Assembly (NCBI GenBank): GCA_035489815.1
Contig: DATHJH010000018.1
Span: forward strand, 73,931-137,930
Reading direction: 5' to 3'
From: Candidatus Limnocylindria bacterium
GTDB taxonomy: Bacteria > Patescibacteriota > Saccharimonadia > Saccharimonadales > JAGQNK01
DNA: 64,000 nt
Each line of letters begins with the position of its first letter. The first letter of the stretch is position 1. Shown in pieces: positions 18,531-50,729 of the stretch. The position numbers and the translations under genes were made by a program. Below the pieces are notes generated by a model. The model did no database searches. It was given only the letters and a program-made list of their open reading frames with translations, and was not told the DNA's origin.

Positions 18531-18588
18531 TGACTGCGCCGCCGATGTTTTTCGTTTTTGGTTCGTACTGACAGGGTCCCAACAGGGG

Positions 18589-19323: not shown

Positions 19324-19413
19324 TGTAGCAGCAAAACCTGGCTTTTACGGTTGTGCTAAACACGGTGCAGTATCTATACTCATATACAGATCCAATCAAA
19401 AAGAAAGCGCAAC

Positions 19414-35802: not shown

Positions 35803-36020
35803 GCTTCATCCTCTTCGGGCCGCAGCCAGTCCCTGGCCAGTACTTTTTCTGATAACAACATGGTTTCGGAAATTCTTTTGTTTGGCTTCGCAGCTATAAT
35901 GCTGATCTTGCCTTTCACGGCTTTAAGCTCAACGCTGCCAGATAGCCCGCTTTCCTCAAGCAAGGGCTTGGGTATGCGGATACCCTTTGAATTGCCAATA
36001 GTGATAATGGATGCCTTCAT
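35784..36020 (-). CDS. mazE: MazE/AbrB-family antitoxin (SpoVT-AbrB domain)
   Basis: ITIGNSKGIRIPKPLLEE swapped-hairpin motif; 78 aa; overlaps mazF by 19 nt. Confidence 0.7.
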   Translation of the reverse strand: MKASIITIGNSKGIRIPKPLLEESGLSGSVELKAVKGKISIIAAKPNKRISETMLLSEKVLARDWLRPEEDEAWASLQ

Positions 36021-36078: not shown

Positions 36079-36155
36079 TGGTACCCCCGGTAGGATTCGA
36101 ACCTACGACCTCGACGTTAGAACCGTCTTGCTCTAATCCACTGAGCTACGGGGGC
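36079..36155 (-). tRNA. tRNA-Arg (anticodon TCT), CCA encoded
   Basis: Manual cloverleaf: acceptor GCCCCCG/CGGGGGT, anticodon loop GTTCTAA (one stem mismatch), T-loop TTCGAAT, 77 nt. Confidence 0.8.
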
Positions 36156-36189
36156 GCACTGCTAGATTACCTCATATTGTACGGATACG

Positions 36190-36672
36190 CTACCCTGGTG
36201 GCCGCTGGTCCTGCAGGGCGGCAAATGCGCCAGCCGCCCATACCAGCATAGAGCGTTTATCGCCGGGGATTACCCCTGGTGTTCCTGCTTCCGGGGCCAG
36301 GAGCCAAAGGCCGCGCTGCGCAGTGGCGCTTACCATACTCTGGTAAATATCAGCGTTGCCCGTTATTGGGGTAATGGCTATTGGAGGTATTGGGTTGTCT
36401 CTGCATAGTATTCCGAGCGCTATGGGCCATTCCTGAGAGGAAGGACTATCGCCCTGTTGATACGGAAAACTTCCGTCCAGTGCAACCAGTCCGACTGTAC
36501 TCAAACGTCCACTGTCCGCCAAGTCTTGAAGGGCGACGGTATTGCCAACTCGTTCAACGGGCAATTGTAGCTTTTCAAAAGGCCGGCACAGCCAATCTGC
36601 CGGTCCCCCAATGAGGTGGGCGTCTTCGTCATCAACTATCAACACATGTGTTCGCGGGGTCTCTGTTGTCAT
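36190..36672 (-). CDS. Hypothetical protein
   Basis: 160-aa ORF; no confident domain. Confidence 0.35.
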   Translation of the reverse strand: MTTETPRTHVLIVDDEDAHLIGGPADWLCRPFEKLQLPVERVGNTVALQDLADSGRLSTVGLVALDGSFPYQQGDSPSSQEWPIALGILCRDNPIPPIAITPITGNADIYQSMVSATAQRGLWLLAPEAGTPGVIPGDKRSMLVWAAGAFAALQDQRPPG

Positions 36673-36832
36673 AATCTGCCCAAGTTTACCACATGGTGCG
36701 GGATGGGGTAGTCGAAACCCCGTCTGAAGTTTGGAAAACTTCCATATTAACCGCTATACGAATCCCGCATGTTCTATAAAACAGGGGTAATTATACCAGA
36801 TTCAGAGAATTTGAACAGATTCTAAGCTGGTT

Positions 36833-38665
36833 CTAGTTACTTGCAGCCGCAAAGAGTGCCTCGGCTGCGGGTTTTGGACTGTAACTGCCGTCTTCATTCT
36901 TCTGCCAAGGGGCGTCGTTGCCGTATTGCGGGGGCGGAATACTGTACCTGTCGTCAGGTTCGGACGTGAAGTAAAATTCATTGCTGGCCAGCCCCCAGAA
37001 GTTGACGCTTATACAGTTCTTAGCACCCAGTGCTGTGCGCACAATCTTTTCCGCCATCTGGGCCTGCTGGTCGGGGTCGGCGCCTTCTATGCTGAGTTCA
37101 GAAACGCGGACCTTCAACCCCATATCTTCCAACTGTTTAAAGCGCTCGGCCAGGATGTCTGAGCCGAGCAGCTCGTTGATGTCATCCGAGTCCAGGTGGG
37201 CCTGGAAGCCAATACCATGTACAGGCACGCCTTCTGCCTGAAGATCGGTGAGTAGGCGGATGAGTGCATCCCAACGATCCGGATCATGTTCCAGCCCCCA
37301 GTCATTCAGAAACAGCAGGGCATTTGGATCGGCCTCGTGCGCAGCCCGAAAAGCTTCACTAATATAGCCTTCACCCATTGCGTTATACCACAGGTTGGGC
37401 CGGAATTTGCTCCAGTCGTCTTCGTCAAAAGGTTCATTTACAACGTCTACAGTAGCGAACTGGCCCCTGTATCGAGTGAGGGGTTCTTGGATATCGGCGC
37501 GCATAATTGCCCGCGCTTCTTCGGGAGAAGCGGTGGTGAGGGCTGCTTCTTTCCAGGCGGGGTTTGCCTCGCCAAAGACGGTAGTGTGGTAGTGAAGCTG
37601 CTTGCCGTGCCGACGCCCTAGGTCCACAAAAGCATCTAGCTCGCTCCACACCCGTGCATTTGATTCTGGTTGCCAAGCCTGGGGTTTGGCTAGCATTTCA
37701 GGTACTAGCCCACCAGCGTTAGCAGTGACCAGTCGGGCATAATTTTGGTCGTAGGTAAAGGCGGTCAGGTCGATTGCTGTGCTGATAACCAGGTCCGGGC
37801 GTACTCTGGCAACGGTGGCTTGTAGTCCATTCGGATCAAGCTCGCCCAAGTTAACTTGAGCACTGTCAACGACCTCAAGCTCGTTTTCTCCGAGTGGGTA
37901 AGCTGTTAGTTCCACGACATTCCATTGCTTGGCGGCGTCCATGCCAAACCACAACTGGCCGGACTCAAAGACTTTGGCTTCTGGGAACTCTATCTTTTGA
38001 TCATCATTGACGTGGACCACCAGTCCGCCGGCGGTTTGCTCTAGCCTTAGCTCGACCGCATCAATCGGCGTGCCTAGGTCGATTGCCTCTGTCTCGTCCG
38101 GCTGCTCACCGGTGCCATACCACAAGTTGGCGGTTATAACAGAGCCCTCTACGGTGACGCCCATACCTGCTTGTTGGTAGATGCGCTCATCGTAGCGGAG
38201 CGTGGGTCCACTTAGGACCTGCAGCGAAGCCCGGCCGGATATGTCGCTTAACCGGGCCCGAACACCCACATTGCCATCTGCCTGGCTCATTTCTACGTGC
38301 GTCCAGGGATTACCGGGGGTGACAGGGAAATACTCTGGTGTGTCTGGGTCCGCCCAGGCGCCCTGTTCTTTGCGCAGAGCAAGGCCGGTATGGGCTACGG
38401 TAAGGGTGCCGTTTTCTGATGTTACACCTGGCGTGAAGCTCCAGTTCGCCTCATCCAGGAGGTTGGTTTCTGGGCCTTTGGGGTCGAGTTCAGCTTGCAT
38501 AGGTGTCTCTCCTTCCGGGTGGTCTTGCTCGGTGCCTGACCCACCTCCTGACGAACATGACACGGTAAGGATACTGGCAGCCAGCAAAACAGCCATGCCA
38601 CGACGACCTATAGGAAAGCCTCGTCGGCCTTCGTCTACTTGTGGCTCGGCGGGAATGTGGTCCAT
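36833..38665 (-). CDS. Secreted/lipoprotein glycoside hydrolase family 10 (endo-beta-1,4-xylanase-like) with N-terminal beta-sandwich domain
   Basis: Lipobox LTVSC|SSGG; GH10 acid/base motif DVVNEP (FATVDVVNEPF) and nucleophile region RVSELSIEG (TELD-like). Confidence 0.8.
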   Translation of the reverse strand: MDHIPAEPQVDEGRRGFPIGRRGMAVLLAASILTVSCSSGGGSGTEQDHPEGETPMQAELDPKGPETNLLDEANWSFTPGVTSENGTLTVAHTGLALRKEQGAWADPDTPEYFPVTPGNPWTHVEMSQADGNVGVRARLSDISGRASLQVLSGPTLRYDERIYQQAGMGVTVEGSVITANLWYGTGEQPDETEAIDLGTPIDAVELRLEQTAGGLVVHVNDDQKIEFPEAKVFESGQLWFGMDAAKQWNVVELTAYPLGENELEVVDSAQVNLGELDPNGLQATVARVRPDLVISTAIDLTAFTYDQNYARLVTANAGGLVPEMLAKPQAWQPESNARVWSELDAFVDLGRRHGKQLHYHTTVFGEANPAWKEAALTTASPEEARAIMRADIQEPLTRYRGQFATVDVVNEPFDEDDWSKFRPNLWYNAMGEGYISEAFRAAHEADPNALLFLNDWGLEHDPDRWDALIRLLTDLQAEGVPVHGIGFQAHLDSDDINELLGSDILAERFKQLEDMGLKVRVSELSIEGADPDQQAQMAEKIVRTALGAKNCISVNFWGLASNEFYFTSEPDDRYSIPPPQYGNDAPWQKNEDGSYSPKPAAEALFAAASN

Positions 38666-38691
38666 GCTGTTATGCTTTCTAGCTTGATTGT

Positions 38692-39339
38692 TTAACGGAA
38701 AACAATCTGGTGGCTAGCAACATCGCTAGCATCCATAGAGGCAATATCGGTGTACTGGGTGGTAATTTGTTTGAAGCTGCCATCATGGTCGCGCCGGACA
38801 GTACCTAGGCCATACCAAGTGTTATCATCGCCCTGATGTACGGCAACTATGAGCTCATCGGGATTGCATGGATTGGTCTGGAGCTCGTCGACAGGAAGAA
38901 TGCCTGCCTCTGGTGACGGATCGTTATCACCGCCGTTGTCATAAATAATTGCAGCGTACTCAACATCGGAATACAGAGATTTATCTACTGTCATAACTAC
39001 GGCTGTAGGTGTATCTTCTAAATCCAGGTATTCGGCATCTGGATCTCCTTTGACCATCTCGCCCTGTACACGTACGTCACCGGTAAACATCAATGCAGTT
39101 GGCTTGAATCCCCACTCGGCATCGCCTTCTATCGGTGCGGCACCAACTTGACTAGCTTCGCAGTCTAGCGGACCTTCGTCGCCATCCATTATAAAAGAGG
39201 CTGCTAGTAAACCTAGGCCTGTTGTTACTGCTGCGCCTGCTAGGAGCCTCGGCCACCTACGTTTTGTTTCAATAGGGCCTTGGCCTTGCTGCGGTGCTTC
39301 TGCTTCTGGCGATGGTGAATCGAATTGTTTCATAGGCAC
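38692..39339 (-). CDS. Hypothetical secreted/membrane-anchored acidic protein
   Basis: N-terminal TM (LLAGAAVTTGLGLLAASFI), Asp-rich ectodomain, 215 aa. Confidence 0.4.
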   Translation of the reverse strand: MPMKQFDSPSPEAEAPQQGQGPIETKRRWPRLLAGAAVTTGLGLLAASFIMDGDEGPLDCEASQVGAAPIEGDAEWGFKPTALMFTGDVRVQGEMVKGDPDAEYLDLEDTPTAVVMTVDKSLYSDVEYAAIIYDNGGDNDPSPEAGILPVDELQTNPCNPDELIVAVHQGDDNTWYGLGTVRRDHDGSFKQITTQYTDIASMDASDVASHQIVFR

Positions 39340-39446
39340 TTAGGATAACAAAACGCGGCTCGCTTCGCAATGCTACATAATTGCTTTGACAATCATACAT
39401 TATTGAGTTATTCGTTCAACTTTTTTATAATCCGCCTTGGTACCCC

Positions 39447-40073
39447 ATGAGTGAGATCGGCTATACTTATGGCTATATGAAAATGCCTACGCTGCGGCAG
39501 GTAAACAACGGATTGAGTCTACTGGTCATTGGACTGTGCCTCTATATCCTGCTGGCGCCGCTGTGGCCGCAGGCAACGTTGCGGCTAAAGGATGCTCCGC
39601 CTCTGGTTGTGGCAGAAGAGAAGGTTGGCCCAAAGCGACCAGATCCACCGCCCAAAGAAAACACCTTAGTCGTGCCGCGTATGAAATTACAGCAGACCGT
39701 TTTTGAAAGCCAGACCGGCTACCCGGCGCTTAACAAAGGCATCTGGCATCACCCCCAGAGCGGCACGCCGGGCCGGGGTAAAAACACGGTGCTGATCGGG
39801 CATCGGTTTACCTACGGCGGCCCGGCGGTGTTTTACCACCTGGACAGGGTCCGGGCTGGCGATCAGATTGTGCTGTATTGGCAGCAAAAAAGACATGCAT
39901 ATACAGTAGAAAAGGTGCTGGTAGTGCCGCCCAGCGCGACCGACATAGAAAAAGCAGATGTGGGCGGGGAGCGCCTGACTATCTACACTTGTACACCACT
40001 TCTGACAGCCCGGGACCGGCTGGTTATCCAGGCAACGCCGTTGGATGAGACGACGGAAGGAGCAATCCCATGA
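39447..40073 (+). CDS. Sortase (transpeptidase), copy 1
   Basis: N-terminal TM; His in LIGHRF, catalytic Cys in LTIYTCTP (TLxTC), downstream Arg; 208 aa. Confidence 0.75.
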   Translation: MSEIGYTYGYMKMPTLRQVNNGLSLLVIGLCLYILLAPLWPQATLRLKDAPPLVVAEEKVGPKRPDPPPKENTLVVPRMKLQQTVFESQTGYPALNKGIWHHPQSGTPGRGKNTVLIGHRFTYGGPAVFYHLDRVRAGDQIVLYWQQKRHAYTVEKVLVVPPSATDIEKADVGGERLTIYTCTPLLTARDRLVIQATPLDETTEGAIP

Positions 40074-40183
40074 AAGAATGGCACCGAACAGTTATACTGG
40101 CTGTCTTTTTGATCATCGCACTCGGGCTTATATTTCTAGCACGCCGAATGCCAGAAGCTGTACTCGTCACCTGAATCGTCAGG

Positions 40184-41473
40184 TCAGCCTGTAACAACCT
40201 GCCGGCCCACGCGCTGGGGTGAAACCCAGGTGCTCTTTTGGTCCTGCTGACCAACCAGGCGGTGCGTGCGCATCAGGCATTTGACGACCGCAATGAACTG
40301 GATGAGGTCCATGAGGTAGAAGATAAAGTACAGAAACGGCGTATAACAACTGAGACGCAAGCAGTACAGCTTGGGGAGGTGTTCGTCGTACCAAAGGGTC
40401 AGAAGCGTATAGATGGTGATAGTCAGGTAGGCGCCTGCGAACAGCTGCAGGCTGTGGGTGGCAAGACTGATATAGACGACGTAACCCCAGAGCAGGGGCG
40501 CACATAGAATGGCAAACTCGCCAATAATAGCCATAGGCAGCCGGTACCAGGTAAGCCGCCGCGTGAAGCGTTTGTCCAGGTTGAAGATCAGGTGACGATA
40601 TTTCACCACGTTTTGCAGGCTGCCGTATTTCCAGCGGAACCGTTGTTTGAGCAGGCCCCGAAAGGTGGCCACACCTTCTGTCAGGGCGGTGACGTCGGCG
40701 GCATAGATAATTTTGTAGTTACGGTTCCCCATGTTGCTGATGATCTTGATGCTCAGGCCAATGTCTTCAGTCCAGGTATCGGTGTCATAAAAGCCGACTT
40801 CCTTGAGGACCTCCATGCGATAGGTCGAGGCTACGCCGCCAATGACAAATTCGCTCTTAGTCAGCGAGTAAGTTTTTTTAGAACGGTAACCGATCATGTG
40901 TTCAAACTTTTGCAGGATGCCGAGTATAGTGGGCTCTTCAATAATCCGCACGTTAGCTGCCACGCCGACAATAGAAGGGTCGTCAAAATATGACACGGCG
41001 TTCTTGATCGTGTCATGCTCTAACATAGAGTCGGCGTCAAGCGTCATAACCAGCTTGCCCTTGGCGCGGTGCTGCAGGGCGTAGTTCAGCCCCTGGCCCT
41101 TGCCGACGTTTTTGTACCGACGGACAATACTTAGATCAGTGTCAGGGTGTTCCCGCTTGTATTCCAGGACCAGATTGTAGGTGTTGTCTTTGGACGCGTC
41201 ATCTATGACGATAATCTGGAGGTTCTGGTGGCTGCCAGCCCGTATGGATTGCAGGCAGCGCAAAATAACCTTTTCTTCGTTGTGGGCGGGGATGAGCAGG
41301 GAAACGAGCGGTTCAGCATGTGCGCTATGGCGCCGGGCAGCGGCCAGATGATGCCGCCGCTTGAACTGCCACATGTCGTAAAAATTGGCCCCCACCAGGT
41401 ACATGCCAAAATGCATAACATACATGGCGCTGGTCGCTGCAAAAAGATAGAAAAGGATTAAGCCCCCATCCAT
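40184..41473 (-). CDS. Processive family-2 glycosyltransferase (PgaC/IcaA/NodC/cellulose-synthase-like), copy 1
   Basis: DDASKD, DADS, and Q(R)xRW (QRFRWKYG) motifs; N- and C-terminal TM helices; 429 aa. Confidence 0.85.
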   Translation of the reverse strand: MDGGLILFYLFAATSAMYVMHFGMYLVGANFYDMWQFKRRHHLAAARRHSAHAEPLVSLLIPAHNEEKVILRCLQSIRAGSHQNLQIIVIDDASKDNTYNLVLEYKREHPDTDLSIVRRYKNVGKGQGLNYALQHRAKGKLVMTLDADSMLEHDTIKNAVSYFDDPSIVGVAANVRIIEEPTILGILQKFEHMIGYRSKKTYSLTKSEFVIGGVASTYRMEVLKEVGFYDTDTWTEDIGLSIKIISNMGNRNYKIIYAADVTALTEGVATFRGLLKQRFRWKYGSLQNVVKYRHLIFNLDKRFTRRLTWYRLPMAIIGEFAILCAPLLWGYVVYISLATHSLQLFAGAYLTITIYTLLTLWYDEHLPKLYCLRLSCYTPFLYFIFYLMDLIQFIAVVKCLMRTHRLVGQQDQKSTWVSPQRVGRQVVTG

Positions 41474-41474
41474 A

Positions 41475-41717
41475 TCAAGTTTGCTCCTCGGCCCGGGGTT
41501 TATTCCACGTACTTATTTGGGTGACTGGCGGAAACTGGCCGGATCTGGACAGTTTTTTGGTACGCATGTGGTACATCATCCGCACAGCACTCCGCATGAA
41601 GGCTGTAGCCAGGACCATGCTCCAGCTCCCTATACTTACGATTGCTAAAAACACCAGCAGTGCCCGAAAAGAATGCGTTGGCACATACGTGGCACTAACT
41701 ATAGACAGAAGTTGCAT
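41475..41717 (-). CDS. Small membrane protein co-transcribed with the GT2 gene
   Basis: 80 aa, two TM segments; starts 2 nt after the GT2 ORF on the same strand. Confidence 0.3.
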   Translation of the reverse strand: MQLLSIVSATYVPTHSFRALLVFLAIVSIGSWSMVLATAFMRSAVRMMYHMRTKKLSRSGQFPPVTQISTWNKPRAEEQT

Positions 41718-41934
41718 ACTTTGTTCCCATATTTAAACACCCTAAAGCGATCCCCAACTTACCTGATTCGTACAATACCATAGCTATTTCATAATAAGAA
41801 CTTTAATGGCTTAAGTGTTGCAAAAACTACTTTAATATGTGGATAAGTCTTGACGGAAGCCTGCTGTGGCGGACTGGTATTCATGCTACTATAGGGTCCT
41901 AAGGATAAGAGGGGTATATGAGGGGGAAAACAGG

Positions 41935-43695
41935 GTGAAGTTCTGGAGCAAACTGCCTACCGTTCCGCGCGAAACTTTTCTAAGCGTGGGGGTGCTTGGC
42001 GTCATAGGACTGGGTATACTCTCTTTTAACGCTATGAAAGACATGTTTATTGATACCGGCACAGATGGTGTGACGCAAGGCGTATCATCTTACGAGCCGG
42101 ATTTGCTTGATGGCCAGTGGGCCTTCATGCCCGGGGTTACTCATGATGACCAGGGTCTGCGAATCATGCCAACGAAGCTCACTATTGTTGAGCAGGATGG
42201 TTCTGGCGGTCAGGCTAATCCGCCTGTGAACTTGTTTGGCAGTCACCTGGAAGAGGTAACAGACTTTACTATGCACACCAGGCTGGAAGACCTCAAAGAC
42301 AAAGGGATCATTCAGCTGTACGGCCAGGCACCGGTTATTGCCGATGAGTTTCGGGTGGAGCGAAAAAGCATTCGTTTGACGGTGTCATCCAACTCCTTGC
42401 AGGCGGATTGGTGGAACGGTGCCGGCCAGCAGCCTGCAGCCACGCAGTCTTTTGCTTTTGATCAGCAACCTGATCAGCAGTCATCAGTTGACCTGAAGCT
42501 GGTATATAAAGCAGGCGTTGTAACCTTCTGGGTCGATGGCAAAGAGCTTGGCACCCTGGCAGCCGCAGACGTGTTTGCGGACAAGAAGGTGTGGATCGGC
42601 TTGGACGGCACCGACAGCTGGCTGCTGTCCCGGCTGGAAGCCCGGGGCGTGGACGGGTCAGAGCTGGTCCAGGTTGATGCCTCTCAGCTTAGGGTGTCCG
42701 CACAGGGAGACGAAGGTCTACAGGCAGCGGTAGCAAAAAAACGTTCCGATTTTCTGATTGGCACGGCTGCAGCTTTAGGGCCGCTTACTACTGATCCGGC
42801 CTACGCCCGGACCGCGCTGGGCGGTACGTTTGGACTGTTCACCACTGAAAACGCGCTTAAGTGGCAGTTTGTCCACCCCAAACCGGATGAGTACGCCTTC
42901 CAGGAGGCAGATGCGCTGGTTGCCCTGGCTGAAAGACATCAGGTAAAAGTCCATGGGCACACTCTGGTCTTTGGCGAGGCTAACCCGCGCTGGGTGCAGG
43001 ACCTGCCGGTTGGCGACGTGGAAAAGACCATGCTGGACCATATCAAACAGGTTGTCGGCCGGTACCAGGGACGCATGCACAGCTGGGATGTAGTTAACGA
43101 GCCCATTGCTGACTATGATGAATTTGAGCGGGGCGATGCTGAACTGCGCAAACACAAGTGGTTCCAGGCTATGGGCGAGGCCTATATAGCTAAAGCCTTC
43201 CGGGCGGCCCGCGCCGCTGACCCCAAGGCTCAGTTGTTTATGAATGAATACGGGCTGGAGGGAAGCGTGGGCGACGAAGACACCGAACGCTGGGATGCCT
43301 TCCTGGAACTTATCCAGCGGCTACTTGACCAGAAGGTGCCGATTAACGGCGTGGGTTTTCAGGCCCATGTCTATGCGCCGGAGGATCGGATCGACACCAG
43401 GGTGCTAAGGTCCCGTATTCGGATACTGGAGGAGTTGGGGCTGAAAGTACGGATTTCCGAGATGGATGTCTACAGTGACGAAGGTCCAGAGGTACAGGCT
43501 GCCCAGTATGCCGAGGTCCTGCAGGCTTGCGTCGCCGAACCTGGCTGTGCTTCCTTTACTACATGGGGGATTTCGGACAGGTATAACTTTTGGCGGGATG
43601 ATGACGGGTCCCTGCAGCAGGGCGAGGATTTTTTGTGGGACAAAGCTATGCACCCCATTGCAGCTGTCACCAAGATGCTGGAAATTCTCCAATAG
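41935..43695 (+). CDS. Membrane-anchored GH10 family glycoside hydrolase, copy 2
   Basis: TM anchor then beta-sandwich domain; GH10 motifs HSWDVVNEP and RISEMDV; tentative GTG start at 41935 (ORF track ATG at 41866). Confidence 0.78.
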   Translation: MKFWSKLPTVPRETFLSVGVLGVIGLGILSFNAMKDMFIDTGTDGVTQGVSSYEPDLLDGQWAFMPGVTHDDQGLRIMPTKLTIVEQDGSGGQANPPVNLFGSHLEEVTDFTMHTRLEDLKDKGIIQLYGQAPVIADEFRVERKSIRLTVSSNSLQADWWNGAGQQPAATQSFAFDQQPDQQSSVDLKLVYKAGVVTFWVDGKELGTLAAADVFADKKVWIGLDGTDSWLLSRLEARGVDGSELVQVDASQLRVSAQGDEGLQAAVAKKRSDFLIGTAAALGPLTTDPAYARTALGGTFGLFTTENALKWQFVHPKPDEYAFQEADALVALAERHQVKVHGHTLVFGEANPRWVQDLPVGDVEKTMLDHIKQVVGRYQGRMHSWDVVNEPIADYDEFERGDAELRKHKWFQAMGEAYIAKAFRAARAADPKAQLFMNEYGLEGSVGDEDTERWDAFLELIQRLLDQKVPINGVGFQAHVYAPEDRIDTRVLRSRIRILEELGLKVRISEMDVYSDEGPEVQAAQYAEVLQACVAEPGCASFTTWGISDRYNFWRDDDGSLQQGEDFLWDKAMHPIAAVTKMLEILQ

Positions 43696-43708
43696 ATATA
43701 GATATATA

Positions 43709-43843
43709 GGGGCCGGCTCACCCTCCTATGCGTGTTTTAAAGGCTCCAAGCGAAGTGCAGCCGGGTTAATTTTTGACCCTGTGGCAAAAATTAACCGCGC
43801 GAAACGGTCTTTACAAACACGCATAGGAGGGTGAGCCGGCCGG
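43709..43843. repeat. Nested inverted repeat: perfect 27-bp arms GGCCGGCTCACCCTCCTATGCGTGTTT/AAACACGCATAGGAGGGTGAGCCGGCC enclosing an inner 12-bp inverted repeat GGTTAATTTTTG/CAAAAATTAACC
   Basis: Read directly; begins 14 nt after the GH10 stop. Confidence 0.65.
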
Positions 43844-43920
43844 CTTCATAGCAGCTACATACTATTTGCGACAAAACCTGACCCTCAAAACCCCAACCCT
43901 CCACTGTCATTCCCAACTAG

Positions 43921-44000
43921 ACCCAGGAATCCAGTAGATACAAGTAATTAACTTTTCTTTATTGACTGGATACCCGGGTCTGGCCCGGTATGACACGATT
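43921..44000. repeat. Structured intergenic repeat, family member B (ATCCAGTAGATA ... TTGACTGGAT, hairpin CCGGG-TCTGG-CCCGG, ATGACACG)
   Basis: Same architecture as 13841-13925 and 59733-59815. Confidence 0.5.
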
Positions 44001-44150
44001 GGAGGTTTTGAGATTCAGGTCGACAAAGCGTTGTATAAATTGTATTGCTATTGCTTTTTAGGGTTATTTAGGATATTATCTAAACTAAAGTTTTAGTTTT
44101 AGGAACTTGAGAGATTAAGCTATATTAACGGGTGGTGCGAGGAGTGTGGA

Positions 44151-46400
44151 ATGAAGCGCATTAAATTTAATGGTCTTTTGGCGATGACCCTGTTAACACT
44201 GGTTGCCCTGGGCAGTTCACTGGTCCGCCAGGCGACTGTGACTGCGGCTGTATTGCCAAATGCACCTACCGGACAGGTGTCTTTTACCTTTGACGACGGG
44301 TTTTCTACCTTTGCCACTAAGGCGGCTCCAGCTTTGGCGGCCCATAACCAGAAGGGCACATTGTACCTGTCAACCGGCTGTGTTGACGGCACAGGAACCT
44401 GCCGCCAGAACGTTGACCCGGCCGCAGAGTACCTGACCTGGGACCAGGTGCAGACACTTAAGAATACTTATGGGTGGGAAATTGGCGCCCACACTGCCAA
44501 CCACCCGCTTATGACCGAAATTACGCCAGCTCAGCTGGAGGCAGAATTTACTGCCAGCAATCAAGCTTTTGCGGCGCATGGTTTGGCACCGACAGCCTTT
44601 GCCACACCTTATGGCGACTACAACAGTTCAGTAGTAGCAGCCATTGCCAGGAACTACACCTCACACCGTGGTTTTCATGACATCGGCTACAATGCCTGGC
44701 CAGCCAATCGCTACCTCTTGCAGGTACAGCAGGTTCAGGCCGGCGTGAGTGTTGCCACCGTCAAGGGCTATATTGATCAAGCCAAGGCTAACAACACCTG
44801 GTTGGTGCTGGTTTTCCACGATATACAGGACAACCCTAGCAGTGACCCTGAAGACTATCAGTTTAGTACTGCTAACCTGGAAGCTGTTGCAGCCTATGCC
44901 CAGGCCCAGAATATCAAAAATGTCAACGTGACCGAAGGTCTGACCACTGGCCAGAGTAACCTGCTGCCTAACAGTGGCTTTGCTAACGGCCTCGGTAGTG
45001 GCTGGAAGACCAACACTCCCGCTAACGTCGTAGCCAACACCGCCGGCAACGGCGCCGTGGCTTCACCGGCTAACTCTGTTGCTATGACTGCCGCCGCCGA
45101 TCAGAACGTCTACCTGTTCTCGCCGACTATCAATATAGACCCCACCCGCCGCTACTGGCTCTCTGCCTACGTAAATACAGTGACTCGTACGAGCGGCGAA
45201 GTAGCCTTCTACGTAGACGAATACGACACCGCCGGCAACTGGATCAGCGGCCAGTATAAGCAAGCTCTGACGGTGCCGGAGTTCAAAGACGCTTCGTTTA
45301 TCTATCAGCCTACCTCTGCGCAGGTTAAAAAGGCCAGCGTGCAAGTAATTGTCACCGCTGGCTCGGGTATCACGACTTACATTGACAACGTCGAATGGTA
45401 TGGCCTGGACGCTGCTGCCGACCCAGATCCTAACCCCACGCCTACGAACCTTAACCTGCTCCCTAATAGTGGCTTCAATAACGGCGTAGGTGATGGATGG
45501 ACAACTGACAATGCTGCAGCTATAGCCAGCGACACCGCCAATCACGGCAGCCCGGCCAGCCCCTCGCACTCTGTCAAGCTGACGGCACCTGCATCTGGCA
45601 ATGCCCACTTGTTTGCGCCAAAGGTAAATGTACAGTCCGGCACGACATATATTGTTAAAGCCTTCCTGAACATCCTGACCCTGAACACCGGCGAAGTAGC
45701 CTTCTACGTAGACGAATACGACACCGCCGGCAACTGGATCAGCGGCCAGTACTTGTTTGCAAAGCGCAATGAAGGTGAAGAGCAGGTAGAGTTTACCTAC
45801 ACTCCTACCTCAAGTAACGTAGCCCGGGCCCAGTTGCAGGTCATCCTGACCGGCAACTCCGGCATCAACGGCTACCTGGATGAGGTTCAGTTCCTGGCAC
45901 CTCAGGGCACGCCTCCTCCGGTTGTTGATCCACCCGCGCCCACACCAACCACGACAGTTCTAGAGACTGCTTTTGCTAACGGCATTGCCGATGGCTGGCA
46001 CACCGATACTGCGACTGCCATTACCGCAGACGCAGCTGGTAACGGCGCTGCCGACGAACCACAGCACTCTGTCAAGTTGGTATCTGGTACTGCTAACGCT
46101 CAGCTGTTTTCACCAAACGTGAACGTGAGCGTAGGCACTACCTACACCCTTGAGAGCTATCTGAATATTGTGCAGTTGGCAAGCGGCGAAGTAGCCTTCT
46201 ACGTAGACGAATACGACACCGCCGGCAACTGGATCAGCGGCCAGTACTTGTACGCCCGCCGTACCGCTGGTACGGTAAACGTCAGCTTCAATTACACGCC
46301 TACTTCGGCTGCAGTTGCTCAGGCGAGCCTGCAGGTCATCCTGACAGGCAACTCTGGCATTACTGCCTACCTGGACAGTATCAAGTGGTTAAGCGCCTAA
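44151..46400 (+). CDS. Secreted polysaccharide deacetylase (CE4/NodB domain) followed by three tandem ~160-aa carbohydrate-binding-module-like repeats
   Basis: Signal peptide; CE4 motifs FTFDDGF, LTWDQV, GWEIGAHTANHP; three repeats each containing GEVAFYVDEYDTAGNWISGQY, encoded by 62-nt identical tracts at 45195, 45700 and 46185. Confidence 0.85.
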   Translation: MKRIKFNGLLAMTLLTLVALGSSLVRQATVTAAVLPNAPTGQVSFTFDDGFSTFATKAAPALAAHNQKGTLYLSTGCVDGTGTCRQNVDPAAEYLTWDQVQTLKNTYGWEIGAHTANHPLMTEITPAQLEAEFTASNQAFAAHGLAPTAFATPYGDYNSSVVAAIARNYTSHRGFHDIGYNAWPANRYLLQVQQVQAGVSVATVKGYIDQAKANNTWLVLVFHDIQDNPSSDPEDYQFSTANLEAVAAYAQAQNIKNVNVTEGLTTGQSNLLPNSGFANGLGSGWKTNTPANVVANTAGNGAVASPANSVAMTAAADQNVYLFSPTINIDPTRRYWLSAYVNTVTRTSGEVAFYVDEYDTAGNWISGQYKQALTVPEFKDASFIYQPTSAQVKKASVQVIVTAGSGITTYIDNVEWYGLDAAADPDPNPTPTNLNLLPNSGFNNGVGDGWTTDNAAAIASDTANHGSPASPSHSVKLTAPASGNAHLFAPKVNVQSGTTYIVKAFLNILTLNTGEVAFYVDEYDTAGNWISGQYLFAKRNEGEEQVEFTYTPTSSNVARAQLQVILTGNSGINGYLDEVQFLAPQGTPPPVVDPPAPTPTTTVLETAFANGIADGWHTDTATAITADAAGNGAADEPQHSVKLVSGTANAQLFSPNVNVSVGTTYTLESYLNIVQLASGEVAFYVDEYDTAGNWISGQYLYARRTAGTVNVSFNYTPTSAAVAQASLQVILTGNSGITAYLDSIKWLSA

Positions 46401-46863
46401 GGCGTCGCACCACATTTAGAACCCATCTCATATCTCCATCCCATCCCAAAACCGCCCATTCCGGCGTCAATCCGCCCCAGCTTCCCGGCCGTACCTACAG
46501 GTACGCTCTGGAAAACTGGAACGAATCGCTGCTTGCTTTCTAAAGGAAATGGATCAATTTTGGCATCGGGAGCGAGATATGAAATGGGTTCATAGAAGTT
46601 CTCGGCCAAGCCGGGGACTTTTATTTTATGTTCCTATACCCCATGAAACAGGTTTCAGGGGGACCCCGGGTCTTGGTACCCGGCACGAACCTGTCGCCCA
46701 AAGGGGCTAAAGTAATATGATAAAATAAGCTTTACAATATAACATAAAAGTAGTAATATATAAGTTAGAGGGATCTCGATGATCTTCTGGTTGATCGCTT
46801 TGGCGGCCTTCCAGGGGTCACATCGGGTCCTTTATTTTATTAACCGATCTAAGGAGTAATGGG

Positions 46864-47037
46864 ATGTACCAAGACGGACTAGGCGCCTCAGGCGTTGTTG
46901 CCGGTGCAGTTGTTTTGCCTAACACAGGCGGAAACAGCGTGCTTATGGTAGCTGCTTACACCAGCATTGTTGTTGGCGCAGCAATTTTGCTTACATCGGC
47001 AGTTCGTTTTGTCGCTAAGCGGGCTACTAAGGCCTAA
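46864..47037 (+). CDS. 57-aa ORF consisting essentially of an LPXTG-type sorting signal (MYQDGLGASGVVAGAVV-LPNTG-GNSVLMVAAYTSIVVGAAILLTSAV-RFVAKRATKA)
   Basis: Below the 60-aa ORF-track cutoff; strong SD AAGGAG 7 nt upstream of the ATG; hairpin + T5 after it; sortase and GT2 follow on the same strand. Confidence 0.5.
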   Translation: MYQDGLGASGVVAGAVVLPNTGGNSVLMVAAYTSIVVGAAILLTSAVRFVAKRATKA

Positions 47038-47062
47038 ATAGAGACAGACGAAGATACGGGGA

Positions 47063-47105
47063 GGGAGGACCGCGGCGGTTTATCCGTTTCGGACCTCCCT
47101 TTTTG
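47063..47105 (+). terminator. Intrinsic terminator/attenuator between the LPNTG mini-ORF and the sortase gene (stem GGGAGGACCG/CGGACCTCCC, then TTTTTG)
   Basis: 10-bp GC-rich stem with one mismatch, 17-nt loop, T-run, read directly. Confidence 0.5.
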
Positions 47106-47141
47106 TTTGAAATTGTTTGAAGCTTATTCGAAAAAGGTGGT

Positions 47142-47729
47142 TTGACTATGAAAATAACGAGACTTATAAACCTTATCGGCGGTACCCTGGTACTGGCCGG
47201 AACAGTGGTAGTGCTGTACGGCATGTATGCGCGTAGTGCAAATGCGCGTGTCCAGGCGCAGCCGCAAATTACCGCCCAGAACAGTGTCCGTCCACAAATC
47301 ACTGAAGAAAACGTGATTCAGGGTGAACCGGCTGAGCTGGCTATTCCAGGTCTGGGCATAAAAAACTCAGTTATAGCTGGTGTTTTTAACAGCCAGAACG
47401 GACAGTGGACCCTGACGCTGGACAAAGTGCAGCATGCCATCATAACTCATACCCCCAATGACAGCCGGGGCGTTACCTTTCTGTATGGGCATAACCGCCC
47501 GGAGGTCTTTGCCCGCCTGCCGCAGATACAGCCAGGAGCAGAGGCAGTCATAAAGACCAAGAACGGCCACACTTTCCGCTACCGGTTCAAGGACAGCCGG
47601 ACGACTTCTCCGGCAGATGTGTCGGTGTTTGAGTACGACGGACCACCCATCCTGGTACTGCAGACCTGTACGGGAGTTTTCTTCCAGCACCGGCAGCTTT
47701 TTACCTTTGAATTTGTAGGAGTGAAATAA
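47142..47729 (+). CDS. Sortase (transpeptidase), copy 2
   Basis: N-terminal TM; His in LYGHN, catalytic Cys in LVLQTCTG, Arg in HRQLF; 195 aa; 3-nt gap to the GT2 start. Confidence 0.75.
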   Translation: MTMKITRLINLIGGTLVLAGTVVVLYGMYARSANARVQAQPQITAQNSVRPQITEENVIQGEPAELAIPGLGIKNSVIAGVFNSQNGQWTLTLDKVQHAIITHTPNDSRGVTFLYGHNRPEVFARLPQIQPGAEAVIKTKNGHTFRYRFKDSRTTSPADVSVFEYDGPPILVLQTCTGVFFQHRQLFTFEFVGVK

Positions 47730-47731
47730 TC

Positions 47732-49084
47732 ATGGTTGCAGACGCATTTTTCTACACTTTTATGGCTCTCAGCCTGCTGTATACAATTCATATGGGCCTC
47801 TATATTGTGGGCGCCAATATCTATGATATATGGCAGTACAGCCGCCGTGCCCGCCTGGCAAAAATTCCGCGGCCTCACCGCCGCCGACCGCTGGTCAGCG
47901 TGATCATTCCGGCTTATAACGAGCAGTACAACATTACCCGTACGCTGGATTCAGTGCGGGCCAGTTCTTATAAAAAGATTGAAATAATCGTGGTGGATGA
48001 TGGTTCCAGCGACCAGACTTCCCCGGTGGTACGCGAGTACATCAAGGCGTTGCCGGGCTTTAAAACCTCTTCCTACGTGAAACGCTATGGCAAGAGTGCT
48101 AAACTGTGCCGCCGGTTTGTGCGGGCAGAGGTGGATCGCATCCGCATGATATTGGTGACGCAGAATAACGACGGCAAAGCATCAGCGGTTAATAACGGCG
48201 TCAAAAACCACGCCCATGGCGACCTTATCATGACACTGGACGCCGACTCTATGCTACAGTCAGACGCCATTGGCAATGCCGTACGCTACTTTGAAAACCC
48301 GCGGGTAGTTGGTGTGGCCGCGAATGTCCGGGTGGCTGGCAGCAATACTGCCCTGAGCATCCTGCAAAAGATCGAACACATGATCGGCTACCGGTCCAAG
48401 AAGTTCTACACTATGACCAACTGCGAATTCATCGTGGGCGGCGTGGCTTCGACTTACCGGACAGAGGTACTGAAGGAAGTCGGCTTTTATGACACCGACA
48501 CCCTGACCGAAGACATTGGCCTGAGCATGAAGATCGTAGCCCAAAAAGGCAACCGCGACTGGCGCATTGTCTACGCCGCCGATGTAGTGGCTGGCACCGA
48601 AGGCGTGCAGACCTACAAAGCCCTCTTCAAACAGCGCTATCGCTGGAAGCTGGGTATGCTGCAGAATCTGTTCAGGAATATCGCGCTGACCGGTAACCGG
48701 GACAAAAAGTACAGCCGTATGCTGACCATGTATCGTATTCCTATGGCTTTTCTGGGCGAAGTAATCCTGATGATTGAACCGGTCATGCTGGGCTACATCA
48801 TCTACCTCAGCGTGCTGCATATGACACCGCAGGCTCTGCTGGGTGCCTACGCCACTATTACCCTGTACGTACTGTGGACGCTGTGGCCGGACGAGTATCT
48901 GACGCTGCGGGACAAAATACGCTTCAGTTTCATTGCACCATTTATGTACTTTACCTTTTACATCATGAATGCCGTGCAGATCGTAGCTGTCATCCGCTGC
49001 ATACGAAACTACAAAAAGGTACTTGGCAAAGTAGAAACCGTTGGTCGCTGGATATCGCCTGAACGCGCCAACGCCAGTTCTTAA
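47732..49084 (+). CDS. Processive family-2 glycosyltransferase, copy 2 (paralog of 40184-41473)
   Basis: VDDGSSDQ, DADS, QRYRWKLG motifs; alignable with copy 1 along its full length; 450 aa. Confidence 0.85.
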   Translation: MVADAFFYTFMALSLLYTIHMGLYIVGANIYDIWQYSRRARLAKIPRPHRRRPLVSVIIPAYNEQYNITRTLDSVRASSYKKIEIIVVDDGSSDQTSPVVREYIKALPGFKTSSYVKRYGKSAKLCRRFVRAEVDRIRMILVTQNNDGKASAVNNGVKNHAHGDLIMTLDADSMLQSDAIGNAVRYFENPRVVGVAANVRVAGSNTALSILQKIEHMIGYRSKKFYTMTNCEFIVGGVASTYRTEVLKEVGFYDTDTLTEDIGLSMKIVAQKGNRDWRIVYAADVVAGTEGVQTYKALFKQRYRWKLGMLQNLFRNIALTGNRDKKYSRMLTMYRIPMAFLGEVILMIEPVMLGYIIYLSVLHMTPQALLGAYATITLYVLWTLWPDEYLTLRDKIRFSFIAPFMYFTFYIMNAVQIVAVIRCIRNYKKVLGKVETVGRWISPERANASS

Positions 49085-49087
49085 AGC

Positions 49088-50608
49088 TTATAGCTCATTC
49101 ATGACCGTGATGCGGGCGCCGACGGAGTTGAGGCGTTCGGCCAGGTCCTCATAGCCGCGGTTGATGGAGTAGACGTTTCGGAGTATAGAAATGCCATCCG
49201 CAGCCAGCATGCCGATCAGCAGCAGTACGGCCGGGCGCAAGGCTGGCGGGCAGACGATGTCCGCGGCGCTGAACTTGGTCGGGCCGTCAATGTAGGCCCG
49301 GTGCGGGTCGGCCAAGGTGACATTGGCACCCAGTTTGCGCATTTCGGTGTAGTACAACGCGCGTTCCTCGTATACCCAGTCGTGTATGAGTGTGCGGCCT
49401 TTGGCTACCGCGGCAATTGGCACAAAGTAGGGGAGGTTGTCTATATTGAGACCCGGGTATGGACGGGCATAGATCTTTTCCTCCAGCGCAATGAGCTGAC
49501 CGTCGTGCTTGCGGATGGTGACGTCAGCCAGATTGGTGTGGCCGTTGTCCGCTTTGTACCATTCACTGATGTTGTACTTGAGCCCCATGTGCTTGAGCTT
49601 GGTCAACTCCAGCTCTATAAACTCAATCGGTGCCCGGGCAATAGTCAGCTGAGAGTTGGTGGCTATGGCCGCTGAGATGAAGGTCATGGCTTCTACTGGA
49701 TCTTCGGCAGGGTAGTAGGTGACGTTTTTCTTGATGTCCCGTACGCCTTTTATGCGCAGCGTGGTAGTGCCTACGCCATCGACTTTGACCCCGAGTTTGC
49801 GAAGGAAAAAGCAAAGGTCCTGGACCATGTAGTTGGCACTGGCCATTTTGATGGTTACTTCGTGCTCAAATCTGGCGGCGGCCATCAGGACGTTTTCGGT
49901 CACCGTGTCGCCGGATTCGTACAGCACAATTTCTGCGGGCTTTTTCCTGGCGATTTTGACGTTATAGTGGCCGGTTTTGGCCACAACGTCTACGCCGAAT
50001 TCTTCCAGGGCAAACAGGTGCGGCCGAACGGTGCGGGTACCTAGTTTACAGCCCCCGGCGTAGGGGATTTTGAACTCCGGGAACAGGTGCATGAGCGGGC
50101 CAAGCATCATCAGGACGGACCGGGTCCGGCGGGCGGCCTGCTTGTCCATTTTGTCCATTTGCAGTTTTTCCGGCGGTTTGATCTCCAGGTCGTTATTGTC
50201 GTGCCATTTGACGCCGACGCCGATACTGACCAGCACTTCAATAATGCGGTTGACCTCCTCTATGCGCGGCATGTGCTTGAGCCGGGTGGTGCCTTTGTTC
50301 AGCAGGGCGGCAAACAGCAGGCAGACCGCGGCGTTTTTGGATACCCGGGTCTTAATGGTCCCTTTTAGTTCATGCCCGCCCTCTATGCGCAAGTTTACGG
50401 CGCTGCCGGTCAGGCTGATGAGCGGCTTTTTCAGCACGTCGCTGATGCGTCCCAGCGTTTCCAGGCTGAGGTTTTGTCTGCCGTGCTCTATACGGTTGAC
50501 GGCGGATTGGCTGGTGCCCAGTTTGCGGGCAAACTCTGCCTGGGTAAGGCCCCTGTCTTGTCTTATCTGATGAATTAGATGGCCTATTTTCTCGTTTGTT
50601 GTGTTCAT
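49088..50608 (-). CDS. murA: UDP-N-acetylglucosamine 1-carboxyvinyltransferase MurA with an N-terminal XRE-type helix-turn-helix domain
   Basis: N-terminal ~65 aa IRQDRGLTQAEFARKLGTSQSAVNRIEHGRQNLSLETL (HTH_XRE), then EPSP-synthase-fold MurA with the active-site loop AGGCKLGTR; alternative start at 50629. Confidence 0.85.
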   Translation of the reverse strand: MNTTNEKIGHLIHQIRQDRGLTQAEFARKLGTSQSAVNRIEHGRQNLSLETLGRISDVLKKPLISLTGSAVNLRIEGGHELKGTIKTRVSKNAAVCLLFAALLNKGTTRLKHMPRIEEVNRIIEVLVSIGVGVKWHDNNDLEIKPPEKLQMDKMDKQAARRTRSVLMMLGPLMHLFPEFKIPYAGGCKLGTRTVRPHLFALEEFGVDVVAKTGHYNVKIARKKPAEIVLYESGDTVTENVLMAAARFEHEVTIKMASANYMVQDLCFFLRKLGVKVDGVGTTTLRIKGVRDIKKNVTYYPAEDPVEAMTFISAAIATNSQLTIARAPIEFIELELTKLKHMGLKYNISEWYKADNGHTNLADVTIRKHDGQLIALEEKIYARPYPGLNIDNLPYFVPIAAVAKGRTLIHDWVYEERALYYTEMRKLGANVTLADPHRAYIDGPTKFSAADIVCPPALRPAVLLLIGMLAADGISILRNVYSINRGYEDLAERLNSVGARITVMNEL

Positions 50609-50729
50609 TGCAAGAAAGATTATACCCTCCATGATATAAATAACAAGCACTTTTTAGCTGTCCGGTCCTCACTTTTTCACCTCCAAAGAAGCTGACGAAG
50701 TGTGAAGGCGGAGTCCGCCTTTTTCAGAT

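Follow-up and report, generated by a model that had tools for sequence, protein, structure and literature searches.

We analysed a 64-kb window of DNA (the whole stretch from position 73,931 to 137,930 of contig DATHJH010000018.1, assembly GCA_035489815.1) containing a cell-surface locus in which three consecutive genes encode a 57-residue protein with an LPXTG sorting signal (the mini LPXTG protein, or mini), a sortase (sortase-2) and a membrane-integrated glycosyltransferase of family GT2 (GT2-2). We consider it reasonably probable that the locus consists of two related synthase-dependent surface-polysaccharide modules, and that the module with the sortase provides the polymer made by its GT2 with a peptide handle. 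The main clue appears to be the homology of the mini LPXTG protein to a small partner protein of the synthase, which had been missed in an earlier note on this DNA. What seems to be new here is a true sortase in an exosortase-like role, with a minimal substrate that is probably derived from a synthase companion.

Conservation of the mini LPXTG, sortase and synthase genes

The comparison set comprised 80 loci from species-representative genomes, drawn via an alignment of GT2 homologues; in each locus, open reading frames (ORFs) were called and then searched with the proteins of the window. Counts of upstream genes refer to the 79 GT2 genes for which 1 kb or more of upstream sequence was available. 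A sortase-2-like gene lies directly upstream and on the same strand in 58 of these 79, with gaps mostly between -8 and +8 nt, which indicate translational coupling; start and stop codons overlap between coupled genes. A mini ORF was found in all 58 sortase-coupled loci, 54 times as a detectable homologue 10-99 nt upstream of the sortase gene and four times as a divergent copy recovered by motif search. These ORFs encode 52-62 residues that begin with Met-Tyr and contain LPxT(G), one transmembrane (TM) helix and a basic tail. The LPxT motif is present in 59/59 sortase-coupled small proteins (the 58 loci and the window) and absent from 13/13 small proteins encoded beside sortase-less GT2s. The earlier note had described a twofold pairing of sortase and GT2 genes. 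The pairing of sortase-2 with GT2-2 proved to be strongly conserved and translationally coupled, in the order mini LPXTG, sortase, GT2; the adjacency of the second pair of the locus, sortase-1 and GT2-1, is real in the window, yet none of the 17 other loci in the clade of GT2-1 shows it.

The trio is also retained when the gene order changes. Five distant members of the sortase-2 family were looked up, and all five adjoin a GT2 gene and an LPXTG substrate gene. Two loci (L108 and L109) have the canonical order of mini, sortase and GT2; in L105 and L106 the order is mini (-), then GT2 (+) and sortase (+); in L107, mini (+) and sortase (+) are convergent with GT2 (-). This survival of the trio through three different gene orders argues for a functional connection, as judged from gene order, over inherited order. 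In L103 (3416-5733), the substrate is a 190-residue secreted protein with a signal peptide, followed by the sortase gene and an overlapping GT2 gene. Its 150-residue passenger includes a Pro/Thr-rich stalk before LPDTG, the protein has a tail RFAVSTY, and this stalked substrate would fit the role of a glycan carrier. In L105 and L106 we also noted, at 58-1375, a second sortase (226 residues) preceded by a 205-residue secreted protein ending in a Gly/Ala-rich tail, 1.4 kb upstream of the rearranged GT2-sortase pair.

With the exception of the L103 variant, and unlike a canonical LPXTG surface protein, the mini protein has no signal peptide and no passenger domain. In the window, 16 residues precede LPNTG, and the segment from Met1 to Thr21 (the N-tail, 21 residues) reads MYQDGLGASGVVAGAVVLPNT; LPNTG is followed by 24 hydrophobic residues and then by RFVAKRATKA, which together have the make-up of an LPXTG sorting signal. 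An alignment of 56 copies shows the pattern MY(E/G/Q)GG(K)G..., a stretch rich in Gly, Ala, Thr and Val, (V/L)LPNTG(G)N, the TM helix and R(F)VAK(K/R)AYKA. The entropy at the three codon positions (1.00/0.79/1.63 bits) indicates that the gene is protein-coding and under purifying selection, and, together with the strong Shine-Dalgarno sequence before its ATG and the homologues in the 58 sortase-coupled loci, it marks the LPNTG ORF listed in the earlier note as a real conserved gene. Among the 59 coupled copies, LPxTG is complete in 56 and Tyr2 is present in 56, and the segment from Met1 to the Thr of the motif ranges from 14 to 33 residues, with a median of 22. A word-indexed search with the 57-residue protein was too insensitive (four matches only), and a hidden Markov model search of a representative library was used instead; among 1.84 billion representative proteins this profile found 80 clusters, nearly all of 50-96 residues, and no large LPXTG proteins. 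No other ORF with a sorting signal was found in the 64-kb window, and within ±10 kb in the 80 loci there are two exceptions only (L007 and L078). The latter, a Saccharimonadales metagenome-assembled genome (MAG), encodes a 58-residue mini (MYEQTGG...LPLTGGN; 18113-20339) directly upstream of a membrane-anchored CE4 protein of 320 residues, along with a different GT2 of 355 residues (QIRRW), with no sortase gene between the mini gene and these genes, which makes this a second kind of module. The mini gene is annotated as 'hypothetical protein' in the window's own record, and in GCA_036279215.1 (L108, 2301-2474) it is present and uncalled in the deposited annotation.

A terminator-like hairpin separates the mini gene from the sortase gene in the window. 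A hairpin with a T-run (ΔG <= -15) was found 3' of the mini gene in 45/54 loci, compared to 4.3% of 300 windows drawn at random from those loci. This arrangement recalls, by analogy, pilin and precursor-peptide operons, in which the first product is needed in excess.

Both sortases of the locus exceed the gathering cut-off of PF04203 (26.6 bits), with 81.1 bits for sortase-1 and 61.8 bits for sortase-2. In sortase-2, His117, Cys176 (LQTC) and Arg184 are invariant in 30 homologues, and its AlphaFold model (pLDDT 90.3) has the eight-stranded beta-barrel of the sortase fold, with Foldseek matches to sortases of classes C, E, D and A at E-values from 2.5e-10 to 2e-8. We propose that sortase-2 is the dedicated sortase of the module and that the mini LPXTG protein is its substrate. 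Sortase-1 scores 54.6 bits with TIGR01076 (cut-off 39.35) and carries the catalytic motifs GHRF, YTCT and RDR, as read in the sequence; it is an orphan, and the window contains no substrate gene for it. Its candidacy as a second conserved partner of GT2 was rejected: no sortase-1-like ORF occurs within ±10 kb in the 80 GT2 loci, and a metagenome scan with sortase-1 returned distant relatives only (25-41 bits), none of them near GT2, CE4 or GH10 genes. Neither NCBIfam scores nor structure comparison allowed either sortase to be assigned to a class. No NCBIfam class model reached its cut-off, the best scores being 64 bits for sortase-1 (class C, cut-off 160) and 38.5 bits for sortase-2 (SrtD, cut-off 140; class C, 18 bits, cut-off 160).

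Sortase-less synthases and their proposed small partner protein

Both GT2 proteins match PF00535 (106-110 bits) and PF13641 (90-94 bits) and contain the QRxRW motif, as QRFRW in GT2-1 and QRYRW in GT2-2. The motifs D94, D170xD172, TED259-261 and Q301-R-x-R-W305 are invariant in 77 homologues. The model of GT2-2 (pLDDT 89.1) has a GT-A domain set against a channel-forming TM bundle and matches hyaluronan synthases in Foldseek (TMq 0.66-0.70), as well as BcsA and chitin synthases; the top match by E-value is PcManGT, which we take to be a minimal cellulose-synthase-like fold. With all polymerase motifs in place and a model that resembles hyaluronan, cellulose and chitin synthases, the two proteins are of the membrane-integrated synthase type suggested by the earlier note, and not polyprenyl-phosphate sugar transferases. 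The best NCBIfam match of both is the PgaC/IcaA family TIGR03937 (169.2 bits, end to end, for GT2-1 and 167.5 bits, in two stretches, for GT2-2). The second-best is TIGR03111, the GT2 family associated with the exosortase XrtG (100 and 78 bits, cut-off 364).

A neighbour-joining (NJ) tree divides the GT2 homologues into three groups: (i) a sortase-coupled majority, which includes GT2-2; (ii) clade B, without a sortase, which includes GT2-1; and (iii) a small group of solitary GT2s. The conserved partners of clade-B GT2s are a small TM protein, a second CE4 protein (~580 residues, encoded downstream) and GH10, whose gene is divergent and upstream of GT2 in nine loci. Clade B includes Arthrobacter, Pseudarthrobacter and Geodermatophilus, in which no sortase accompanies the GT2; in Arthrobacter and Geodermatophilus the genes for GT2, CE4, (CE4-CBM) and GH10 form a tight co-directional cluster. 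Six of the sampled loci from these three genera (L058, L074-L076, L079 and L080) contain the sortase-less module of small TM protein, GT2, CE4, (CE4-CBM) and GH10. Their GT2s are 46-49% identical to GT2-2 and group inside the Saccharibacteria clade B, and this placement suggests gene transfer, in either direction, between Saccharibacteria and the Actinobacteria, the phylum that supplies their hosts.

In the window, an 80-residue single-pass membrane protein is encoded 1 nt upstream of GT2-1. Eleven other clade-B GT2 genes, among them those of Geodermatophilus (L058) and Arthrobacter (L074), are likewise directly preceded by a gene for a small single-pass protein (54-80 residues), which overlaps the GT2 start or ends within a few tens of nucleotides of it. 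The family of clade-B small proteins was compared by hhalign to the mini family over the TM helix and tail, and the two families align with a probability of 95.6%, an E-value of 1.3e-8 and a score of 41.1 over 37 columns. Control comparisons gave far lower scores: 10.6 for reversed sequences, up to 13.8 for column shuffles, up to 18.2 for block shuffles of the TM segment and tail, 14.1 for the sortase TM anchor and 12.5 for generic LPXTG signals of approximate sequence. An origin of the match as a generic artefact of TM helices and basic tails was therefore rejected. In L039, a small protein with a degenerate LPNAS is encoded directly upstream of GT2 and no sortase is present; it looks like an intermediate. 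From these alignments we conclude that the small protein is a conserved companion of the synthase family, and that one lineage acquired a sortase motif in it along with a dedicated sortase gene. The partner gene has no match in Pfam or NCBIfam, its topology and position differ from those of PgaD and IcaD, and we regard it as an analogue of those proteins.

Proposed mechanism, competing explanations and known systems

Module B (41717-40184 on the minus strand, with the genes for GH10-2 and CE4-CBM divergent from it) would consist of a PgaC-like GT2 translationally coupled to its small single-pass partner and served by a CE4 deacetylase and a GH10-type hydrolase; the same module is found in Actinobacteria. 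Module A (46864-49084) would be a Saccharibacteria-specific derivative, in which LPNTG was added to the partner where its TM helix ends on the outer side, and the genes for partner and synthase came to flank a dedicated sortase gene. Representing the action of module A as a series of steps, we suggest the following: (i) the 57-residue protein would insert with its N-terminus out and C-terminus in, without a signal peptide, by virtue of its short uncharged N-tail and basic C-tail; (ii) it would dock on the synthase via the TM helix and the tail RFxAK..Y.K, which it has in common with the module-B partner; (iii) sortase-2, made together with the synthase, would cut LPNTG between Thr and Gly and move the N-terminal peptide of ~22 residues to an amine, as suggested by the perfect co-occurrence of the motif with its enzyme, whose catalytic triad is intact; (iv) the mini product would probably be made in excess over the enzymes, as a consumable substrate and not a 1:1 subunit, because a terminator-like hairpin follows its gene; and (v), most speculatively, the reaction would fix the GT2 polymer on the cell surface by the peptide handle, which is the outcome that we prefer. 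We infer the catalytic step of the sortase from the genes. The polymer is probably based on N-acetylglucosamine (GlcNAc), since the best family match of the synthase is PgaC-like, and would be partly deacetylated by the CE4 protein that carries carbohydrate-binding modules (CBMs), with the peptide joined to peptidoglycan or to the amine of a glucosamine in the polymer. More generally, the wall or the surface sugar polymer may receive a short peptide through this unit. The specific proposals that the sortase joins the ~22-residue peptide directly to polysaccharide (for example, at a glucosamine amine exposed by CE4), or anchors a peptide-primed polysaccharide to peptidoglycan, are tentative and less probable than not.

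In a rival account, the mini protein could be a synthase subunit that matures by sortase cleavage, so that removal of the N-tail switches the synthase on or off or releases it, the peptide being a by-product; such gating could tie polymer export to the supply of the cell-wall precursor that serves as nucleophile. A subunit of this kind is consistent with a TM helix and tail homologous to those of the partner in sortase-less synthases, with the translational coupling of sortase and synthase, with an N-tail that is short and weakly conserved, and with the small protein of L039, which persists without sortase or motif. We nevertheless consider this account unlikely, because the hairpin after the mini gene favours an excess of consumable substrate over a 1:1 subunit, the 150-residue passenger of L103 with its Pro/Thr-rich stalk resembles cargo, and we know of no precedent for a sortase that acts as a regulatory protease.

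The small gene, apparently highly expressed and followed by an attenuator-like hairpin and then by enzymes, has the anatomy of a pilin or precursor-peptide operon, and the top structural matches of sortase-2 include class C pilus sortases. The sortase could thus polymerise the ~22-residue peptides, rich in Gly, Ala, Thr and Val, via a Lys or the N-terminus of the next unit, or attach them in bulk to peptidoglycan, giving a minimal pilus-like fibre or a brush-like coat with which the GT2 polymer is only co-regulated. A Lys near the N-terminus (as in MYEGGKG) is present in 31/59 members but absent in the other 28, including the window copy; the mini protein contains no pilin fold or pilin motif, and sortases of classes C, E, D and A match sortase-2 about equally, with no class cut-off reached. 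A peptide fibre or coat also leaves unexplained both the homology to the synthase partner and the tight coupling of sortase and GT2, and we regard it as distinctly improbable.

The hydrolytic enzymes of the locus raise the question of xylan. The CE4 protein of NodB type carries the motifs FTFDDG, HTANH and LVFHD, as read in the sequence, and three CBM4_9 repeats. Its best NCBIfam match is the holdfast deacetylase HfsH (72 bits, below the cut-off), and a PDB search matched acetyl-xylan esterase 2cc0. N- and O-deacetylation were not separated by the PDB sequence and fold searches, and the same searches, applied to GT2 and CE4, did not separate polymers of the PNAG (poly-GlcNAc), chitin, hyaluronan and cellulose types. 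A CE4-CBM homologue is encoded within 1.6 kb upstream of the mini gene in 40/51 loci, equally often on either strand, and the count rises to 52/59 within 10 kb. The segment GEVAFYVDEYDTAGNWISGQY is present in identical form in all three CBM4_9 repeats, and this identity suggests a recent internal duplication or gene conversion. The two GH10 proteins are paralogues, 32% identical over their full length, and both keep the catalytic-Glu motifs VVNEP and SE(L/M); GH10-2 matches a Streptomyces xylanase (3wuf) with an E-value of 3e-49. The N-domain of the two proteins (approximately residues 65-270 in each) has no Pfam match even at E = 10; judged by length, it is also present in Actinobacterial GH10 homologues. 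GH10 appears to be an accessory hydrolase of the sortase-coupled unit, and its substrate could be the GT2 polymer instead of xylan. It is highly improbable that no coupling exists at all, i.e., that GH10 and CE4-CBM are secreted nutritional xylan degraders, that the sortases have housekeeping duties, and that the genes adjoin only through synteny inherited in small genomes. In favour of this, GH10, CE4 and CBM4_9 are the classic xylanase, acetyl-xylan-esterase and xylan-binding set, with the matches to Streptomyces xylanases and to 2cc0 just described, and MurA and serine hydroxymethyltransferase (SHMT) belong to a conserved housekeeping neighbourhood around the operon. Against it, the trio survives three rearrangements, LPxT tracks the presence of the sortase perfectly, start and stop codons overlap between the coupled genes, distant Actinobacteria have GT2, CE4, CE4-CBM and GH10 in a single co-directional cluster, the locus has no xylose transporter, xylosidase or isomerase, and the mini protein is homologous to the synthase partner.

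It should be noted that several points weigh against a sortase module that fixes a GT2 polymer by a peptide handle. The GT2s are relatives of PgaC/IcaA and not equivalogs, as the cut-off of 422.3 bits is missed. The hhalign match covers 37 columns that are mostly hydrophobic; apart from Met-Tyr, the N-tail of mini is poorly conserved, and it has a Lys in 31/59 copies, the window copy being one of those without. The hairpin could simply end a separate transcription unit. GH10 is present in 12/59 sortase-coupled loci, and, as a family of beta-1,4-xylanases, it does not fit beta-1,6-linked PNAG. That the N-tail is exported without a signal peptide is an assumption based on topology rules, the sortase acceptor and the peptide-polymer bond are what we purely infer, and no enzyme that joins polymer to peptide was identified. 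The operon is not mentioned in the Southlakia transposon-sequencing (Tn-seq) paper. The reading as a whole is drawn from sequence comparison and predicted structures. The earlier note had argued from the logic of PNAG or chito-oligosaccharide synthesis; this remains plausible, while the missed cut-off for PgaC/IcaA equivalogs (169 versus 422 bits) and the xylanase affiliation of GH10 count against it. Its GH10 calls pass the thresholds of the domain models, and the low frequency of GH10 beside sortase-coupled genes makes these enzymes accessory.

Among known systems, the closest analogue is the XrtG/Firmicu-CTERM system of the Firmicutes, which was reportedly defined in silico by Haft and for which we know of no biochemical characterisation. 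It has the same order of sorting-signal protein, sorting enzyme and PgaC-like GT2, and its signal likewise consists of a C-terminal TM helix and a basic tail. For example, LP_RS09090-09075 of L. plantarum encode a CTERM protein, an exosortase and GT2s (PMC12854382). The exosortase/exopolysaccharide parallel drawn in the earlier note is apt in both gene order and GT2 family, the XrtG-associated family being the second-best NCBIfam match. The module described here differs in that its enzyme is a true sortase (PF04203), an extracellular beta-barrel on one TM anchor, whereas exosortases are polytopic and of an unrelated fold; it also differs in the LPNTG motif, in the substrate of 52-62 residues homologous to a synthase partner and in the Saccharibacteria host. 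None of the ten locus proteins matches an exosortase or CTERM model in NCBIfam. By analogy, the module would work like the XrtG system without being a member of it.

PEP-CTERM/exosortase (EpsH) systems are tied to exopolysaccharide (EPS) loci in Gram-negatives (Haft et al. 2006, PMC1569441). They too have a dedicated protein-sorting enzyme genomically tied to EPS synthesis, and a signal with an architecture analogous to LPXTG; the enzyme family and envelope are different, and there are many substrates per genome, compared to a single mini substrate per operon here. The EPS pathways linked to PEP-CTERM are usually of the Wzx/Wzy type and not of the synthase type. Systems for PNAG (PgaCD-PgaB in E. 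coli and IcaAD-IcaB in staphylococci) likewise combine a GT2 synthase, an adjacent small membrane partner and a CE4 deacetylase; there, IcaA and PgaC depend on the small membrane proteins IcaD and PgaD. In our locus, by contrast, the partner gene lies upstream and encodes a single-pass protein with no detectable relation to PgaD or IcaD, GH10 takes the place of a hydrolase of the PgaB C-domain or dispersin type, and a sortase and an LPXTG protein are present; unlike in PNAG systems, no cyclic di-GMP element was identified in the locus. Wu and colleagues are said to have found in 2014 that GspA, a glycosylated LPXTG protein of Actinomyces oris, is anchored by the housekeeping sortase. In this SrtA-GspA-LcpA system, an LPXTG protein carries a glycopolymer and is anchored to the wall by a sortase, in a member of the phylum that hosts Saccharibacteria; GspA is, however, a full-size secreted protein, its glycan is moved by an LCP enzyme, the sortase is a housekeeping one, and there is no operon with a GT2 synthase. 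Operons of class C pilus sortases also place a dedicated sortase beside its substrate gene, with the substrate probably in excess, but the pilin fold, the pilin-motif Lys and the lid motif are missing here. In the literature open to search, we found no description of a sortase/GT2/mini LPXTG unit in Saccharibacteria or of a GT2/CE4/GH10 synthase system, in agreement with the earlier note, which knew of no such system.

Locus layout, source organism and significance

All ten ORFs of the layout given in the earlier note were recovered from the ORF list with their coordinates and strands (Table 1). The domain calls (two GH10, two sortases, two GT2, and CE4 with three CBM4_9 repeats) are all above Pfam thresholds. 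Its claim that every product is exported or membrane-bound is supported as well: GH10-1 has a lipobox-like signal, and the others have either a hydrophobic anchor or signal at the N-terminus or TM helices within the chain.

Table 1. Features of the locus and its convergent neighbour, with positions in the window
Feature	Coordinates	Strand	Description
GH10-1	36833..38665	-	lipoprotein-like signal (…LTVSC), ~200-residue N-domain, GH10 domain; PF00331 189 bits (cut-off 22.1)
215-residue membrane-anchored protein	38692..39339	-	one hydrophobic segment, residues 32-50
Sortase-1	39447..40073	+	membrane-anchored, monocistronic, convergent with GT2-1; Pfam 81 bits
GT2-1	40184..41473	-	PgaC-like membrane synthase of the sortase-less clade B (Pfam, NCBIfam, NJ tree)
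80-residue single-pass membrane protein	41475..41717	-	proposed synthase partner subunit; gene upstream of GT2-1, with a gap of 1 nt
GH10-2	41866..43695	+	membrane-anchored, same N-domain, GH10 domain; PF00331 246 bits; divergent from the partner/GT2-1 operon
CE4-CBM	44151..46400	+	secreted deacetylase/esterase (NodB-type CE4) with three CBM4_9 repeats; PF01522 71.1 bits
Shine-Dalgarno sequence AAGGAG	46851..46856	+	7 nt before the mini ATG; read in the sequence
Mini LPXTG protein, 57 residues	46864..47037	+	LPNTG with cleavage between Thr and Gly, TM helix, tail RFVAKRATKA
Terminator-like GC-rich hairpin, then TTTTTGTTTG	47058..47109	+	between the mini and sortase genes; ΔG -31.3 kcal/mol, z -4.1
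Sortase-2	47142..47729	+	likely start ATG 47148 after Shine-Dalgarno sequence AGGTGG; N-terminal TM anchor; Pfam 62 bits
GT2-2	47732..49084	+	PgaC-like membrane-integrated synthase; ATG 2 nt after the sortase-2 stop codon
HTH-MurA neighbour	49088..50650	-	XRE-type helix-turn-helix (HTH) and MurA-like enolpyruvyl transferase (Pfam HTH_3 and EPSP_synthase); convergent with GT2-2

The locus extends over approximately 36.8-49.1 kb, as both flanks consist of housekeeping genes: an ABC transporter, GATase, MazEF and tRNAs on the left, and the HTH-MurA fusion, two hypothetical genes and SHMT on the right. A MazF/PemK-MazE toxin-antitoxin pair, tRNA-Arg(TCT) and tRNA-Gly(TCC) lie directly to the left (35461-36020 on the minus strand, and 36079-36768). 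Between those tRNAs and the conserved part sit the genes for GH10-1, the 215-residue protein and sortase-1, none of which is conserved with the module; the 215-residue protein has no homologue in the 80 GT2 loci, no Pfam match even at E = 10 and no NCBIfam match. An Rfam search of the window gave tRNAs only. The HTH-MurA gene is convergent and downstream of the sortase-coupled GT2 gene in 23/56 loci, which makes it a conserved neighbour and a candidate member of the module at most. This 520-residue fusion joins a DNA-binding domain to a cell-wall enzyme that uses UDP-GlcNAc, an unusual combination.

Proteins identical to those of the window are deposited as 'Candidatus Limnocylindria bacterium' (Chloroflexota). 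Among the GT2 homologues listed, those that bear a name are mostly labelled Saccharibacteria or Saccharimonadales, the GT2s of the window are nested inside Saccharibacteria in the NJ tree, and the neighbourhood of sortase, GT2, HTH-MurA and SHMT is common to the window and Saccharimonadales MAGs. Since homologues, gene tree and synteny all point to Saccharibacteria, the window probably belongs to this group, and the Limnocylindria label is probably an error of binning or labelling.

Very little is known of the surface chemistry of Saccharibacteria, which live attached to host bacteria. With more than 1500 homologues of GT2-2, mainly in Saccharibacteria, and the trio in 58 of 80 sampled species-level loci, the operon is among the more widespread surface-related gene sets of this group. 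It also exposes an annotation gap, in that the mini gene is either labelled hypothetical or left uncalled. The synthase/CE4/GH10 module common to both groups points to gene exchange between Saccharibacteria and Actinobacteria, and our comparison proposes a family of small partner proteins for PgaC-like synthases, with members in the genetically testable Arthrobacter and Geodermatophilus. The results suggest a role of sortases beyond the anchoring of folded proteins and pili, i.e., the processing of a nearly bare sorting signal in step with a polysaccharide synthase, and a second, independent case of the exosortase/EPS logic in an envelope of Gram-positive type; they are relevant to the surface biology of the candidate phyla radiation and to sortase enzymology. 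If the proposed linkage is true, this would be the first natural case of polysaccharide attachment mediated by a sortase, with a minimal substrate descended from a subunit of the synthase. It would also represent a Saccharibacteria-wide machine for anchoring surface glycans, which may act in attachment to host Actinobacteria that carry the sortase-less synthase module.

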